Source: Bacteroidales bacterium
GTDB lineage: Bacteria; Bacteroidota; Bacteroidia; Bacteroidales; UBA3663
DNA: 64,000 nt
Direction of reading: 5' to 3'
NCBI GenBank assembly: GCA_045628525.1
Contig: JAZQPJ010000034.1
Coordinates: forward strand, 4,061-68,060
Positions 4,571 to 32,823 of this stretch are shown piece by piece (position 1 is the stretch's first letter; every line of letters begins with the position of its first letter). The notes beneath the pieces were generated by a model, which saw only the letters and a list, made by a program, of their open reading frames with translations, ran no database searches and was not told the origin of the DNA. The position numbers and the translations under genes are program-made.

Positions 4571-6253
4571 TTACTTGTTCACAGCAGCTTCTGCCTGCAC
4601 CACATTGATCGCATAGTCGCCTATCTTCTCGCATTCGGCAATGAAGTCGTTGAAGAAGGCGCCGAGGCGGTAGCTGTACTTGCCCTCGTTCACGGCGATG
4701 AGGTTCTCCTCGCGGCTGATGGTGCGCAGGGAGTTGATCTCGTTTTCTGCCTCGATGTTGTCGCGCAGATTGATTACCACGTGTTCAGGGTCGGTGATCA
4801 CCTGACGCATCTCATGCAGGGCGCGCTCGGTGAGGTCGAGCATCTGGGTCATCTGCATCTTCTGGTAGTCGGTGAAGTCGCTCGGCTCATTCTCACGCTT
4901 GCGCTGCAGGGTACGGCCGAGGTGGAACATCGAGTCTCCGATCGACTCCAGCTCGTCCACCTGTCGCAGCATCTGGGCGATGTGGTTCTTCGAGTAAGCC
5001 GAGAGCCTGCCCTCCGACACCTTGCGCAGGTAGCCGGCAATCTCCACCTCCATGTTGTCGGTGATCTGCTCGTAGTGTTCCAGTCGCTTGTATTCCTCGG
5101 CAAAGTCGCTCTCCTTCTTGGCCGAAAGGGCGCGGTTCACCATGTCGAGCATCTTCTGGCAACGCTCGGCCATGACACCCACCTCGTTGCGTGCCTGCAG
5201 GATGGAGAGCTCGGCCGTAGAGAGCAAGCCGCCGCTGATGTAGCGCAGACGTGTCTCCTCCTGCGTCTCCTTCTGAGGCAGCACGCGGCACACCAGCTGC
5301 TCAATCTGCTTGACGAAGCCAATCAATAACAAGGTGTTGAATACGTTGAATGCCGTGTGGAAGGCCGAGAGCTTGAAGAGGTCGTTGTTGCCAGCGCCCA
5401 TCACATGCTCCACGAACCATGACACGCCGTTGCAGAACGGATAGAACATCAGGAGCACCACCACCACGCCGAACACATTGAAGAACATGTGCGCGAGTGC
5501 CGCGCGTCGTGCCTGCGTGTTGGCGGTCAGGGAGGCGATGAATGCCGTGATCGTCGTACCGATGTTCTGACCCATGGCCAAAGCCGCTGCCTGCTCAAGG
5601 CCGAAGCCGGGGATCTGCATGTCGAACAGCATCAACGTGATGGCCATCGTGGCGGCCGATGCCTGAACGAGCATGGTAACCAATGCACCCACTACCACGA
5701 AAAGCAAGATTGTGAGGAAACCGCCATCGGCCACGCCTGCCAGCATCTGTGCCACCAGTTCGCCGATGTTCAGATCGGTGGCCGATTGCTGCAGGAAACT
5801 CAAGCCCATGAACAGGAACGAGAAGCCGAAGATGAACTCGCCGATCGACTTGCGATGCGAATTGCTGCTGAAGATGAGCGGAATGCCAAAGGCAAGCAAC
5901 GGCAACGCCAGGGCGGCGATATTGACCTTGAAACCGACAGCCGAGATGATCCATGCCGTCACCGTGGTGCCCACATTGGCACCCATGATCACGCCGATGG
6001 CTTGTGCCAGCGTCATCAATCCGGCATTGACAAACGAAACGACCATCACCGTGGTGGCCGAAGAGGATTGGATCAAGGCGGTCACGGCAATGCCCGTGAG
6101 AACACCCATCACACGATTGCGCGTCATGGCAGCCAGGATGCTGCGCAGACGATCGCCAGCAAATTTCTCAAGACCCTCGCTCATCGTCTTCATGCCGAAG
6201 AGGAAGAGTGCCAGGGATCCGATCAGGGAGAGGAGATTCAGAATTGTATCCAT
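4571..6253 (-). CDS. Na+/phosphate cotransporter family protein (NptA/YjbB type) with a C-terminal PhoU-like helical domain
   Basis: Duplicated Na_Pi_cotrans motifs (QSSSATTVMVVSF, GANVGTTVTAW; GQNIGTTITAF) and a long helical C-terminal half. Confidence 0.9.
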   Translation of the reverse strand: MDTILNLLSLIGSLALFLFGMKTMSEGLEKFAGDRLRSILAAMTRNRVMGVLTGIAVTALIQSSSATTVMVVSFVNAGLMTLAQAIGVIMGANVGTTVTAWIISAVGFKVNIAALALPLLAFGIPLIFSSNSHRKSIGEFIFGFSFLFMGLSFLQQSATDLNIGELVAQMLAGVADGGFLTILLFVVVGALVTMLVQASAATMAITLMLFDMQIPGFGLEQAAALAMGQNIGTTITAFIASLTANTQARRAALAHMFFNVFGVVVVLLMFYPFCNGVSWFVEHVMGAGNNDLFKLSAFHTAFNVFNTLLLIGFVKQIEQLVCRVLPQKETQEETRLRYISGGLLSTAELSILQARNEVGVMAERCQKMLDMVNRALSAKKESDFAEEYKRLEHYEQITDNMEVEIAGYLRKVSEGRLSAYSKNHIAQMLRQVDELESIGDSMFHLGRTLQRKRENEPSDFTDYQKMQMTQMLDLTERALHEMRQVITDPEHVVINLRDNIEAENEINSLRTISREENLIAVNEGKYSYRLGAFFNDFIAECEKIGDYAINVVQAEAAVNK

Positions 6254-14874: not shown

Positions 14875-15160
14875 TGCAATAGTCCGACTTGGATCTGAGT
14901 CGGACTATTGCAGATCTGCAAAAGCATGTCGCAAGACAGAATATGTAATTGTAAATCTGCAGCAGTCCGACCTGGATCCAAGTCGGACTGCTGCGGCTCT
15001 TCAATAGTCCGACTTGATACCGTGTCGGACTGTCGCGCGTTTGCAATAGTCCGACTTGGTACCGTGTCGGACTGTCGCACGTTTGCAATAGTCCGACTTG
15101 GGTTCAGGTCGGACTGTCGCGCGTTTGCATTAGTCCGACTTGGGTTCAGGTCGGACTTTT
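14875..15160. repeat. Array of six palindromic units (AGTCCGAC-N10-GTCGGACT); the last four are in exact 42-bp register
   Basis: Left half-sites at 14881, 14964, 15006, 15048, 15090 and 15132. A conserved 16-bp linker GTCGCRCGTTTGCAAT separates units; the first two stems extend to 13-14 bp. Confidence 0.9.
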
Positions 15161-15255
15161 GTAAAACTTAAGTGCATTTAAACCTTCTAATACGATCATC
15201 GTCCTAAAGACAAAGAACGAAACTTGTATTATTAACACTTTAATACCTTAGAATT

Positions 15256-16047
15256 ATGAAGAAGATGTTCATGACCATGATGCTCGTCATCATCGCAGCC
15301 GCACAGGTATTCGCAATGTCAAACAGCAGCATCCGCCAGCACGCCCGTTTCCTGAGCGACCGCATGGCTTACGAGCTCGACCTGACTCCGTATCAGTACG
15401 ACGACGTGTATGAGATCAACTACGACTTCATCTACAGCATCGATCGCTATATGGACGATGTAGTTTATGGCTACCACGATGCCATCGAGCGCTACTATCG
15501 CTTGCTTGACTATCGCAACGAGGATCTGCGCTTCGTACTCAATGCGCGCCAGTATGCCAAGATGCTGACCCGCGACTACTTCTATCGTCCGGTGTATAGC
15601 AATGGCCGGAGCTGGTACTTCCGCATCTATACGATCTACAGCAACCGTAACTTCTTCTATTACGATGCACCAACCGTGTATAAGAGCTATCGCGGCGGTC
15701 ACTCGCAGGGCAGCTACAACCACAACTACTACAACCAGCGCCATCATCATGACAGCTACGGCCAGCAGTCGGCCATCCACGGCTCAAGCAGCTACCAGGA
15801 GCATGGTCGCAACGACTTCGGCGTAAACCGTCGCGAGCGTGGCAACAAGCACCAGAACGAGATCAACAACTACAACAACCACAACCAGCACAACCGCACC
15901 CAGGATCCTCGCTACCAGGATAATAGCGGCAACCACAATTCGCCACAGATCAATAACCGTGGGCAGCAGGGTGGCCAGGGCAAACCGCAGGACAGCAAGC
16001 AGGGCAATAGCCAGCAGGGCGGCGGTGCCAAGTCGGGAAGAAGATGA
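15256..16047 (+). CDS. Secreted protein with a conserved Tyr-rich N-terminal domain and a His/Asn/Gln/Gly-rich tail (paralog of 31673-32719)
   Basis: Signal peptide MKKMFMTMMLVIIAAAQVFA. About 125 aa align with the other copy (DRMAYEL.LTP.QY, MDDVVYGY, LDYRNEDLR). Confidence 0.8.
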   Translation: MKKMFMTMMLVIIAAAQVFAMSNSSIRQHARFLSDRMAYELDLTPYQYDDVYEINYDFIYSIDRYMDDVVYGYHDAIERYYRLLDYRNEDLRFVLNARQYAKMLTRDYFYRPVYSNGRSWYFRIYTIYSNRNFFYYDAPTVYKSYRGGHSQGSYNHNYYNQRHHHDSYGQQSAIHGSSSYQEHGRNDFGVNRRERGNKHQNEINNYNNHNQHNRTQDPRYQDNSGNHNSPQINNRGQQGGQGKPQDSKQGNSQQGGGAKSGRR

Positions 16048-16093
16048 GGGATTGAGGTGCGAACGCCTCAACACGATGGCTGAAAAATAAGAT

Positions 16094-16126
16094 GCCCCCT
16101 CGCTACAAATGGTGTGGCGAGGGGGC
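16094..16126. terminator. Bidirectional hairpin terminator (GCCCCCTCGC/GCGAGGGGGC)
   Basis: A 10-bp GC-rich perfect stem between convergent genes. Confidence 0.6.
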
Positions 16127-16127
16127 G

Positions 16128-16160
16128 TTGTCATGATTGTCAATTGTCATGATTGTCATT
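16128..16160. repeat. 16-bp tandem repeat GTCATGATTGTCAATT x2 (ATTGTCA sub-repeat)
   Basis: Direct reading; it lies just downstream of the SDR gene stop. Confidence 0.8.
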
Positions 16161-16194
16161 AAGCATTTGCCATTTAGCAGTTGCGCTCATGCAA

Positions 16195-17004
16195 TTACTT
16201 AGGCTGCTTGCCGATGTAGGCGAGGATGCCGCCATCGACGTAGAGCACATGGCCGTTGACAGCGTCAGAAGCCTTAGAGGCGAGGAAGACGGCTGGGCCA
16301 CCGAGCTCAGATGGGTCGAGCCAACGGCCGGCAGGGGTCTTAGCCACGATGAATGAGTCGAATGGGTGACGGCTACCATCTGGCTGACGCTCGCGGAGTG
16401 GTGCTGTCTGTGGGGTGGCGATGTAGCCAGGGCCGATGCCGTTGCACTGGATGTTGTACTCGCCATACTCTGAGCAGATGTTGCGGGTGAGCATCTTGAG
16501 GCCACCCTTGGCAGCTGCATAGGCGCTGACGGTTTCGCGGCCAAGCTCAGACATCATAGAGCAGATGTTGATGATCTTGCCTTCGCGACGCTCCATCATC
16601 TCGGGGAGCACGGCGCTGGCGCAGATGTATGGGGCCACGAGGTCGATGTCGATGACCTGCTGGAACTCGGCGCGCTTCATCTCGTGCATTGGGATGCGCT
16701 TGATGATGCCGGCGTTGTTGACGAGGATGTCGATCTGGCCGACCTCCTGGTGAACCTTCTCGACCAGGGCCTTGACGCCCTCTTCGTCGGTCACGTCGCA
16801 GACGTAGCCCTTGACGTTATCGATGCCTGCCTCCTTGTAGTTGGCAAGGCCGCGCTCGAGAGCTGCCTCGTTGATATCGTTGAAGATGATGGTCTTGGCA
16901 CCAGCGGCTACGAATGCCTTGGCGATGTTGAAACCGATGCCGTAAGATGCGCCGGTGATCCAGGCGTTCTTACCTTCGAGGGAGAATGCTTTCAATGATT
17001 CCAT
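16195..17004 (-). CDS. SDR-family oxidoreductase, gluconate 5-dehydrogenase / KduD-like
   Basis: TGASYGIG, NNAG and YAAAKGG motifs. The start was set at MESLKAF (ATG 17004). Confidence 0.85.
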   Translation of the reverse strand: MESLKAFSLEGKNAWITGASYGIGFNIAKAFVAAGAKTIIFNDINEAALERGLANYKEAGIDNVKGYVCDVTDEEGVKALVEKVHQEVGQIDILVNNAGIIKRIPMHEMKRAEFQQVIDIDLVAPYICASAVLPEMMERREGKIINICSMMSELGRETVSAYAAAKGGLKMLTRNICSEYGEYNIQCNGIGPGYIATPQTAPLRERQPDGSRHPFDSFIVAKTPAGRWLDPSELGGPAVFLASKASDAVNGHVLYVDGGILAYIGKQPK

Positions 17005-17038
17005 TTTGATAAGATTTATGATGTTAGTGGATGATTGT

Positions 17039-17079
17039 TTCGAGGTTTCGATAATTCGAGGTTTCGATGCTTCGAGGGG
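17039..17079. repeat. 16-bp tandem repeat TTCGAGGTTTCGATRM x2.5 in the LacI-SDR spacer
   Basis: Direct reading; related to the TTYGARG family. Confidence 0.8.
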
Positions 17080-17083
17080 AAAC

Positions 17084-18109
17084 TCAGATGGCACTTTCGC
17101 GCAGGATCAGATCGTGGTTGACGATGAGGTGCGCCGGGTGCTGCGTCTCGTCCTCGATTTCGCCGAGGCGGCTGAGCAGGAGGGTGGCTGCCATCTCGCC
17201 GATGCGCTGCTGATGCAGGTCGAACGAGGTGAGGGGTGTGGACAGATAATTGTCGAAGGGCTCGTTGGCCACGCCGATGATGGCGATGTCCCGGGGCACG
17301 TTGAGGCCCTTGCGGCGGAAGAGGTCGATGGCGGTGATGGCCGGGAAGTCGCCGGCCGAGAAGATGGCATCGGGACGATCCTGCATGGTGAGGATGCTCT
17401 GTGCGGCTTCGGTTCCTGCCTCGATGGTGATGGTGTTGCTGAACAGCCACTCGGGGCGGCATTCAAGGTCGAGATCTGCAAGCGCCTTGCAGTAGCCGTT
17501 GTAGCGGTCGGCATACGCCTTCTGGGCGAGAGGGCCGGCGAAGTGTCCGATCTTGCGGCATCCAAGCTTGTAGAGTTGCTGCACGGCATCGTAGCCTATC
17601 TGGAAGTTGTCGTTGGTCACCGAATCGGTGTCCTGCTGGGTGGCAGGCAGACGGTCGAAATAGACGAGCGGAATCTTGTGCTGGGCAAGGAGCGTCTCGT
17701 AGATGGGGTTCTGTGTCCTGGCCGAGAGTGAGAGGGCGATGCCATCGACCTTCTTCGAGATAAGGGCCTTGATGGCGTTTTCCTCCTGCTCCTGGCTCTC
17801 GTTGCTGGCAGCGATGATGACCTGGTAGCCGTACTTGTCGGCCATCTTCTGGAACGAACTGATGATGGTGGCAAAGAAGTTGCGGTCGATACGAGGCACC
17901 ACGATGCCGAGGACATTGCCTTTGCCCGTGCGCAGGTGGTGAGCTACAGGGTCGGGGATGTAATTGAGTTCCTTGGCCAGCTTCTGCACGGCTTGTCGCA
18001 TCTTGAGGCTGATGCGTGGATTGTTCTGCAGGGCGCGTGACACGGTCGAGGCCGTGGTGTGAAGCTGCTGCGCCAGATCGTAGATGGTCACTTTGCCATT
18101 CTCGCTCAT
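17084..18109 (-). CDS. LacI-family transcriptional regulator
   Basis: N-terminal HTH VTIYDLAQQLHTTASTVSRALQN plus a periplasmic-binding-protein-like sugar-binding core. Confidence 0.9.
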   Translation of the reverse strand: MSENGKVTIYDLAQQLHTTASTVSRALQNNPRISLKMRQAVQKLAKELNYIPDPVAHHLRTGKGNVLGIVVPRIDRNFFATIISSFQKMADKYGYQVIIAASNESQEQEENAIKALISKKVDGIALSLSARTQNPIYETLLAQHKIPLVYFDRLPATQQDTDSVTNDNFQIGYDAVQQLYKLGCRKIGHFAGPLAQKAYADRYNGYCKALADLDLECRPEWLFSNTITIEAGTEAAQSILTMQDRPDAIFSAGDFPAITAIDLFRRKGLNVPRDIAIIGVANEPFDNYLSTPLTSFDLHQQRIGEMAATLLLSRLGEIEDETQHPAHLIVNHDLILRESAI

Positions 18110-31672: not shown

Positions 31673-32719
31673 TTATCTGCGGCCGCCACGTTCACCATGG
31701 CTTCCACCACCGTGGTTGCCGTGGTTGTTGCCGTTGCCTTCGCTACGGTTGCCATGGCTACCTGATGAACGCTCGTGTGAGCGGGTTCCTCCATTGGCTC
31801 GTTGCTCGTGCGAATGAGCGGCCTGGTTTGAACGCTGATCGTGAGAACGGTTGGCAGAAGAGCGTTCCGATGAACGATGCTGCTTTTCAGGGCGGATATT
31901 GCCTTGGTTGCCATGTTTGTTGTTGCCACCTTGGCCAGCATTGCCATGGTTACCGTGGTTGTTTCCGCCGCCTTGACCGGCATTGCCATGGTCGTTGTGA
32001 CCGCCGTTGCTGTGGTCGTTGCGGTTGCCATGACCACCATTGTTGTGACCGCCGTTGCCATGGTTGTTGTTGTGGCCACCAGGACGTGCGTCGTGGTTGT
32101 TGTGTCCGTTGCTGTTATGATGGCCACCATGATCGCGGTGATGGTAACGATTGCCAAAATCGTTGTGACGATGGGTTTCGTAATGAGGACCGCGGAGGAT
32201 AGGAGCGGGGACAGCGTGATGTGGGTGGCTGTAACGATTCACGTAGAAGCCGCCATGATGATGGTGGTGGCTGTGCAGGCCGTGGTAGGTATGATAGCAG
32301 TTGGGCAAACCATAATAGTAATAGTGATGGTTGTGATATACATCATAGATGCGGAATGCCCAGCGACGTGCTGTGGTGTAGATTGGACGGAAGAAATAGT
32401 CCAAACCCATGAAGATGCCGTACTGTGTAGCGTTGAGGATGTAACGCAGATCCTCGTTGCGGTAGTCGAGATAGTCGTAGTATGTGTCGATGGCATCAGA
32501 GTAGCCATACACTACATCGTCCATCAGGTTATTTGCCTCGTAGATGAAGTCGTAGTTGACCTCAAAGCAGTCTTCGTACTGAGCAGGGGTGAGCTGCAAC
32601 TCGTAAGCCATGCGGTCGGTGAGGAAACGTGCTGTCTCACGAATGCGTGCATCGCTCATTGCCATTACGCTCATCAGGGTGAGCAGCGGCAGGGCCAGGG
32701 TTAGAAAAAGTCTTTTCAT
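31673..32719 (-). CDS. Secreted protein with a conserved Tyr-rich N-terminal domain and a very long His/Asn/Gly-rich tail (paralog of 15256-16047)
   Basis: Signal peptide MKRLFLTLALPLLTLMSVMA. The N-terminal domain is homologous to the 15256 product. The tail is full of HGN/HNN/GGH repeats. Confidence 0.8.
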   Translation of the reverse strand: MKRLFLTLALPLLTLMSVMAMSDARIRETARFLTDRMAYELQLTPAQYEDCFEVNYDFIYEANNLMDDVVYGYSDAIDTYYDYLDYRNEDLRYILNATQYGIFMGLDYFFRPIYTTARRWAFRIYDVYHNHHYYYYGLPNCYHTYHGLHSHHHHHGGFYVNRYSHPHHAVPAPILRGPHYETHRHNDFGNRYHHRDHGGHHNSNGHNNHDARPGGHNNNHGNGGHNNGGHGNRNDHSNGGHNDHGNAGQGGGNNHGNHGNAGQGGNNKHGNQGNIRPEKQHRSSERSSANRSHDQRSNQAAHSHEQRANGGTRSHERSSGSHGNRSEGNGNNHGNHGGGSHGERGGRR

Positions 32720-32823
32720 AGTTCAAAGGTATTTATGTGTAACTATTATTGTTTCCTTTGTGCAACAAGCTTTACCCACTTGTTTGATTATAAGACGAAC
32801 AGATGGACGAATGGTTTAAAACA

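Follow-up and report, generated by a model that had tools for sequence, protein, structure and literature searches.

A Tyr-rich exported protein family of Bacteroidales as a predicted divergent branch of the LTXXQ superfamily with a candidate alternative-sigma promoter

We analysed a stretch of 64,000 nucleotides from the genome of a Bacteroidales bacterium (contig JAZQPJ010000034.1), which as a whole is called the window here, and within it the gene at positions 15256-16047, which encodes an exported protein with a Tyr-rich domain and a low-complexity tail. The comparative evidence moderately favours a reading in which this protein belongs to a Sec-exported periplasmic branch of the LTXXQ superfamily, connected to Spy, CpxP and ZraP via DUF4890, a family of the Bacteroidota, and serves as an envelope-stress protein controlled by a sigma factor of the extracytoplasmic function (ECF) type. 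From profile comparisons we conclude that it is best described as an LTXXQ protein of the DUF4890 type that has diverged, gained a Tyr-rich segment and acquired a much longer tail; it is a relative of DUF4890 and not a member by the Pfam criterion. The parts of the gene and its paralog are as follows:

15256..16047, plus strand: coding sequence of the protein of interest, with ATG start, 263 aa and stop codon (from the list of open reading frames and from homologs)
15256..15315, plus strand: Sec signal peptide (aa 1-20), for which cleavage is predicted behind V-F-A, a pattern kept across the alignment
15337..15573, plus strand: LTXXQ/DUF4890-like helical module, aa 28-106, from hhalign against 35 DUF4890 proteins
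15382-15396, plus strand: LTXXQ motif 1, LTPYQ, aa 43-47, with Q47 invariant
15538-15552, plus strand: LTXXQ motif 2, LNARQ, aa 95-99, with Q99 invariant
15574..15705, plus strand: family-specific Tyr/Phe/Trp-rich extension, aa 107-150 (RDYFYRPVY...FFYYDAPTVYKSYRGGHS), from the AlphaFold2 model, without a DUF4890 counterpart
15706..16044, plus strand: low-complexity cationic tail, aa 151-263 (N/Q/G/S/H/R, ending in GRR), isoelectric point 9.9, from composition
31673..32719, minus strand: coding sequence of the paralog, 348 aa, with the same domain and a longer His/Gly/Asn-rich tail

The preliminary description of this DNA had reported an open reading frame (ORF) with a signal peptide, a Tyr-rich domain and a low-complexity N/Q/G/H tail, and this is present as described. 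Residues 1-20 (MKKMFMTMMLVIIAAAQVFA) read as a classical Sec signal, with a KK n-region, a hydrophobic core and V-F-A at the cut, residues 21-150 contain 18% Tyr and 24% aromatic residues (the Tyr content of the window's long ORFs is 3.5%), and residues 151-263 consist to a large part of Asn (17%), Gln (15%), Gly (14%), Ser (10%), His (9%) and Arg (9%). The proposed paralog was likewise confirmed, with 50% identity over the first 189 aa (E 1e-54) and a tail containing 21% Gly, 19% His and 17% Asn; the two genes are on opposite strands with 16 kb between them. The statement that the family appears uncharacterised was borne out, as Pfam and NCBIfam scans of both window paralogs gave no match and the public names are either 'hypothetical protein' or mutually inconsistent UniRef labels; the UniRef labels DUF4296 and DUF3300 found on orthologs were not reproduced by a Pfam scan. 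A word-indexed homolog search with the N-terminal 150 aa as query returned 62 homologs, nearly all of them unnamed metagenome proteins. The profile search with the N-terminal domain that had been suggested earlier, made exhaustively, revealed a large family: clustered at 50% identity, it has 1300 cluster representatives at E<=1e-3 and 337 at E<=1e-30, and at least 572 family loci were counted in species-representative genomes. Family hosts are Prevotellaceae, Phocaeicola, Mediterranea and Bacteroides (B. intestinalis, B. oleiciplenus, B. xylanisolvens, B. stercoris, B. heparinolyticus and B. pyogenes), and in several genomes (loci L001, L006, L010 and L049) two family members are found in tandem. 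Because the family comprises so many cluster representatives and loci, the ORF is, on this conservation, a genuine gene and no chance ORF.

The assignment to the LTXXQ superfamily is carried by profile-profile comparison. Faint Pfam matches to DUF4890 were seen over the first LTXXQ helix pair in 13 of 100 family members, with a best E of 0.015. We fetched DUF4890 proteins with an approximate consensus-like bait (42.6 bits on PF16231, and also above threshold on PF13801), which was dropped after retrieval, and the comparisons rest on 35 aligned real DUF4890 proteins. When the family was compared with these by hhalign, the probability was 96.5% (E 9e-10), the alignment covered 79 columns and the two LTXXQ motifs matched each other in register, and the 100-sequence family alignment gave the same outcome, whereas the controls with reversed profiles and with 20 column-shuffled profiles did not exceed 0.4%. 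The DUF4890 proteins in turn aligned with profiles of Spy/CpxP/ZraP (probability 87%, E 4e-6), and the DUF4890 profile matches Spy (3oeo) in the PDB with E 0.0024; ZraP matches PF13801 in a Pfam scan. In their source databases the DUF4890 proteins are named either 'Spy/CpxP family protein refolding chaperone' or 'periplasmic heavy metal sensor'. A heuristic search within the fetched loci found no DUF4890 gene, and a literature search for DUF4890 and for Prevotella intermedia locus tags found no functional study.

The two LTXXQ-type motifs are about 50 residues apart, and in the structure model the helices begin at residues 45 and 97; the second motif reads LT or LS in most homologs in the alignment. 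The AlphaFold2 model of residues 21-150, made with the 100-sequence alignment, is of high confidence (predicted local distance difference test score, pLDDT, 95.5; predicted template modelling score 0.90) and combines three long helices with short ones, a small hairpin and an aromatic-rich stretch that is ordered, together forming a compact bundle. In this model the Tyr-rich extension of about 45 residues packs on the LTXXQ module, which takes up about the first 85 residues of the mature protein, giving a predicted compact domain of 130 aa. F109, P112, Y128 and P139 within the extension are invariant in the family alignment, and there is no invariant His anywhere in the domain.

Several of the sequence and structure comparisons weigh against this assignment. 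No Pfam threshold is reached, the best family member scoring 13.6 bits on DUF4890 compared with a gathering cut-off of 29.7, and the window protein itself does not match DUF4890 (PF16231) at E<=1. When the family was compared directly with Spy/CpxP/ZraP by hhalign, the result was insignificant (0.5-0.6%, over 21 columns around motif 1), and judged by the profiles the Spy link is transitive only, via DUF4890. Foldseek searches of the PDB with two models gave nothing significant (best E 1.9, TM-score 0.41), and the highly confident model did not return Spy, CpxP or ZraP; the top matches were 3kdw and 3g6i, two helical Bacteroides proteins without an assigned role (TM-score about 0.4, E 1.9-4.4), which we take as a lead only. 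A search of PDB sequences with the family profile gave only noise, and the model shows a compact bundle where Spy has an open hairpin cradle.

The second line of evidence concerns transcription. ECF sigma promoters are characterised by an AAC-containing -35 element and, at a spacing of 17 nt, a -10 element of the GTC type, and elements of this form are found upstream of both window paralogs:

15179..15206, plus strand: ECF-sigma-type promoter-like motif TAAACCTTCTAATACGATCATCGTCCTA, which ends 50 nt before the ATG and is conserved upstream of family genes in 17 more contexts that are independent of each other
15179-15183, plus strand: -35-like TAAAC
15201-15206, plus strand: -10-like GTCCTA
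32791..32818, minus strand: second copy of this motif, TAAACCATTCGTCCATCTGTTCGTCTTA, located 72 nt before the ATG of the paralog

The gene at 15256-16047 would thus have its own promoter of the alternative-sigma (ECF) type, as predicted from these elements. The consensus derived from the aligned upstream regions of the Prevotellaceae-type family genes is tTTAAACcTTc-N13-GTCtTAaagaCAAA, and is found regardless of the gene upstream. In the whole 64-kb window TAAAC-N17-GTCNTA occurs at two sites, both of them upstream of the paralogs, where 0.05 would be expected, and in the other loci 25 of the 26 motif sites are located 30-94 nt upstream of a family gene, whatever its neighbours. The 26th site is a duplicate copy flanking a two-gene insertion in locus L021. 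This insertion was noted as an observation in its own right: identical 28-nt copies of the motif at 5726 and 7869 (L021 5726-7896) flank two minus-strand genes encoding a 373-aa AAA-ATPase-like protein and a 249-aa protein, which looks like a mobile or defence-type cassette in the promoter region with target duplication.

The preliminary description had seen no obvious -7 box upstream of the gene. For the exact box (TAnnTTTG) this holds, as there is none between 14848 and 15256 and only one-mismatch sites were found (15154-15161 and 15244-15251), but the conserved promoter-like motif at 15179-15206 had been overlooked. Exact -7 boxes number 49 in the window against 22.6 expected, which marks it as a Bacteroidota genome, and scans with sigma-70 and terminator consensus sequences over 14700-16300 returned nothing. 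The sequence TACCTT(A/T)G is present four nt before both ATGs (15244-15251, and 32724-32731 on the minus strand), and the copy at the paralog is an exact -7 box; its interpretation as the -7 box of a leaderless mRNA was rejected and the conserved motif further upstream preferred, since close orthologs have ACGAYTATG at this position, and it probably represents translation-start context and not a promoter.

Among 88 family genes (loci L001-L094 and the window), 17 have the motif, 53 have an exact -7 box and only one has both, a near-exclusivity which fits an alternative-sigma promoter rather than an operator. The division follows lineage: Prevotellaceae-type genes carry the ECF-like motif, and those of Bacteroides, Phocaeicola and Mediterranea a -7 box 88-129 nt before the start of the domain, and it looks as though transcription has changed within the family between a stress-specific and a housekeeping type. 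These data also count in part against an envelope-stress role, since most Bacteroides and Phocaeicola orthologs have the housekeeping-type -7 box instead of the motif, and stress control is therefore not universal in the family. Furthermore, the motif could be a transcription-factor site, and a search for an ECF sigma gene in the 64-kb window and the fetched loci found none.

We also searched for the motif elsewhere in the Bacteroidota. A metagenome scan with TTTAAACCTT-N14-GTCTTAA gave matches in at least 120 contigs. Among the matches listed, the starts of downstream ORFs peak at 15-45 nt after the motif, 32 of the 39 ORFs starting within 60 nt have a signal-peptide-like N-terminus, and the 84 sites with a downstream ORF include at least nine DUF4890/Spy-like proteins, at least one OmpH/Skp protein (129.8 bits) and at least three ECF sigma factors; chance matches are also among them. 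The motif precedes ECF sigma genes in L114, L196 and L214, all from other Bacteroidota. When DUF4890 genes were chosen regardless of the motif, AAC-N17-GTC was found at -60/-62 in two of five; that the other three lack it counts against the favoured reading. The genes most induced in Prevotella intermedia 17 on solid medium include those for an LTXXQ protein (28.6-fold) and for its neighbour (16.9-fold), as well as an ECF sigma operon (9-10-fold) (PMC2633007).

A separate observation from the same scan concerns at least about 15 contigs among the matches listed (L099, L118, L119, L122, L123, L135, L157, L168 and others), in which TTTAAACCTTTTCCGTCCGAAAGAGTCTTAA is found exactly 126-127 nt upstream of a gene for a 169-aa polytopic membrane protein (METSAKLYSLSF...). 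A leader of this length and conservation suggests that a riboswitch or other regulatory RNA follows a promoter of the same type.

The association with ECF sigma genes would also suit a signalling accessory in place of a chaperone, i.e. a protein that binds the periplasmic face of an anti-sigma factor or sensor of the ECF pathway, like CpxP-CpxA or CnrX-CnrY, and exerts negative feedback until it is titrated off by stress signals, possibly including metals bound to the tail. CpxP is an LTXXQ protein that is induced by the pathway it inhibits, the promoter type is common with ECF sigma operons, and the L196 contig contains an operon of a sigma factor, a transmembrane protein and, at position +2, a weakly DUF4890-like protein. 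The literature also knows ECF groups in which position +2 is taken by a PF13801 protein (PMC7826278). However, family genes are linked to sigma or anti-sigma genes in none of the 89 homologous loci, many genomes have two or more copies with very different tails, and the Bacteroides orthologs have housekeeping-type promoters; we consider such a signalling role somewhat unlikely.

The tail is the most variable part of the protein. In the first AlphaFold2 model the pLDDT falls below 50 at its start, and in close orthologs it contains the conserved islands RNDFG, NNYxNxNQxNRTxDxRY and NSPQIN. The tails of 86 family proteins were variously rich in Ser/Thr, Asn, Pro, Gly or His, and all 86 had a net positive charge (median +20) with 10-24% Arg. 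The His content had a median of 3.4%, with fewer than 5% in 64 of the 86 tails and 15% or more in only three. The preliminary description had considered the protein as His-rich, which did not hold family-wide: because of this distribution, His-richness is local to this genome and to a small number of others and not a family property. Metal binding by the His-rich tails of the two window copies is possible by analogy, since the LTXXQ superfamily includes a zinc-binding member. As a side observation, -RR forms the C-terminus (as SRR, GRR or TRR) in about half of the proteins of the family, and short G/R runs end the DUF4890 proteins; we know of no sorting signal with the form of a basic -RR C-terminus.

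Two other roles for the Tyr-rich domain and tail were considered. In the first, the protein would be a structural or adhesive envelope component, with the Tyr-rich domain and the polycationic tail binding polyanions (lipopolysaccharide, capsule, peptidoglycan-linked polymers or extracellular DNA) and thereby stabilising the envelope or a matrix, and the LTXXQ resemblance would be merely ancestral. The uniformly positive, Arg-containing tails with their frequent -RR ends, the 18% Tyr of the domain and the compact model without a Spy-like structural match are consistent with this, as is the induction on solid medium of the P. intermedia LTXXQ gene, the strain being a matrix producer (PMC2633007). 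Yet neither a lipobox in the window copies nor a type IX secretion system C-terminal domain could be read from the sequence, the promoter is shared with genes for periplasmic chaperones, and homology to a chaperone superfamily is supported, and we rate a structural role as unlikely. The second, quite unlikely in our estimate, is a new kind of envelope-stress effector, in which an LTXXQ-derived Tyr-rich head is combined with a prion-like (N/Q/G/S/Y), Arg-rich tail and acts multivalently in the periplasm, in a condensate-like manner or by bridging polyanions. If this were true, the tail would be free to drift towards His-, Ser-, Thr-, Pro- or Asn-rich forms as only charge and disorder would matter, and assembly would be metal-responsive in lineages with His-rich tails.

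The remaining alternative derives from the genes upstream of 15256-16047, which are arranged as follows:

11408-12538, same strand as 15256-16047, upstream: Porin_O_P porin (Pfam scan)
12578-14848, same strand as 15256-16047, upstream: PHO4/PiT phosphate carrier (Pfam scan)
14872..15175, no strand assigned: six-unit palindrome array of tandem units of about 42 nt (AGTCCGAC-N10-GTCGGACT, the palindromes being at 14881-15157), located between the PiT stop codon and the promoter motif

The preliminary description had proposed that the gene is co-transcribed with the porin and PiT genes through the palindrome array, and that a His-rich periplasmic protein would thus buffer or deliver the divalent metal that is moved as a metal-phosphate complex. 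The gene indeed adjoins the Porin_O_P and PHO4 genes on the same strand, this arrangement is kept in a strain-level relative, the tails of the two window paralogs contain 9% and 19% His, and ZraP of the same superfamily binds zinc. Nevertheless, when 89 homologous loci, with ORFs called up to 8 kb on each side, were searched with the PiT and porin of the window, neither was found within 8 kb in any of them (0/89). An ortholog with 81% identity is located after a GH2 glycosidase gene, and the order of PiT, palindromes and ORF is shared only by the strain-level relative (L094, 96-97% nucleotide identity). The commonest neighbours were an S1-domain gene upstream (39 of 81 loci) and rplS downstream (11 loci), which reflects Bacteroides synteny, and the conserved-neighbour analysis yielded no functional partner. 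The more His-rich of the two paralogs is far from PiT, and His-rich tails are rare in the family. Judged by gene order across these loci, the adjacency to PiT is a one-species accident without a functional link.

The proposed co-transcription fared no better. The 407-nt spacer between PiT and the ORF contains six strong hairpins and folds at -191.7 kcal/mol (z -15.7), and the promoter-like motif is located downstream of the array. The coupling to PiT fails because the gene has its own motif, which is common to the unlinked paralog and to orthologs in other contexts; separate regulation had been named in the preliminary description itself as speaking against its proposal. Within the window the palindrome units occur at the array only, with six copies here, five in L094 and none in any other locus, and an Rfam scan of the PiT-ORF intergenic region gave only sub-threshold hairpin noise. 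The array is probably a terminator/insulator or a REP-like (repetitive extragenic palindrome) insertion of variable copy number, belonging to the context and not to the gene, and is more likely to end or insulate the PiT transcript than to carry transcription into the ORF. Taken together, the comparative data already largely refute a metal-buffering role linked to PiT, which we regard as very improbable.

Three further features of this region were noted. The PiT protein has 756 aa, of which the reported PHO4 match (the better of two stretches) spans residues 26-338; at the thresholds used, Pfam gave no match for the long cytoplasmic extension at its C-terminus, which comprises about 230 aa. 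Between the stop codon of 15256-16047 and the convergent gene downstream, which encodes a short-chain dehydrogenase-like protein (16195-17094, minus strand), there is a GC-rich hairpin at 16094-16126 (GCCCCCTCGC, a 13-nt loop and GCGAGGGGGC), likely a bidirectional terminator without a T-run that was missed by the consensus scan. Finally, in the ORF at 9597-11081 a large N-terminal domain is followed, close to the C-terminus, by GGN(V/D)G(K/E)S repeats in tandem and then by an end that resembles a helix-turn-helix.

In the favoured reading, that of an ECF-controlled LTXXQ-type protein, envelope stress would induce the protein, which may then work in the periplasm as a holdase or stress buffer that needs no ATP, or give feedback to the stress pathway in the manner of CpxP, with the cationic tail capturing unfolded or polyanionic partners. 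The His-rich tails in this genome may add Zn/Ni/Cu binding as in ZraP, as a lineage-specific trait and not as the function of the family, and the neighbouring PiT carrier would be unrelated. To our knowledge, gut Bacteroidales lack the Cpx, Bae and RpoE systems of E. coli, and little has been learned about quality control in their periplasm. With the present analysis a large family of 'hypothetical proteins' would gain a place in the Spy/CpxP superfamily, a new domain variant is described from a confident model, and a rule is obtained for the tail, which is always cationic and otherwise variable. Throughout the Bacteroidota, a compact motif would connect the family genes with skp/ompH, with DUF4890 genes and with ECF sigma operons, and could be used directly to predict envelope-stress regulons where a genome is unannotated and to trace the sigma factor that belongs to it, while the tempting link between a phosphate carrier and a His-rich periplasmic protein is removed as unsupported.

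Compared with known systems, the family is closest to DUF4890 (PF16231), with which it has in common a signal peptide, long helices bearing two LTXXQ-type motifs at a distance of about 50 residues, and a basic G/R-rich C-terminal tail; some DUF4890 members also carry the AAC-N17-GTC promoter motif. DUF4890 proteins, however, have a total length of 110-190 aa with a short basic tail, whereas the family described here adds the 45-aa Tyr-rich segment and a tail of 90-300 aa (5 to 20 times longer), has an insertion between the motifs, and does not have the K/E/Q-rich composition of DUF4890. With Spy/CpxP/ZraP (PF07813 LTXXQ and PF13801 Metal_resist) it shares, through the transitive link, export, two LTXXQ motifs and flexible termini. 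Spy/CpxP/ZraP are induced by envelope stress, which for the family would be the case if its predicted promoter is used, but their genes are controlled by the Cpx, Bae and Zra two-component systems and control here looks ECF-type. Spy forms a cradle-shaped hairpin dimer in contrast to the predicted compact bundle, and ZraP, the zinc-binding member, has His/Gly-rich metal-binding ends, whereas conserved His-rich segments are not a property of the family. Finally, the motif may be compared with the sigma-E-type regulon of E. coli RpoE, from which it differs in that no ECF sigma gene was found in this window and that its sequence (TTTAAACCTT...GTCTTAA) is specific to the Bacteroidota. In both cases an AAC-containing -35 and a short -10 element are 16-17 nt apart, and much as RpoE controls skp and other periplasmic folding factors in E. 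coli, the motif in other Bacteroidota precedes the sigma gene itself, skp/ompH and genes for periplasmic chaperone-like proteins.

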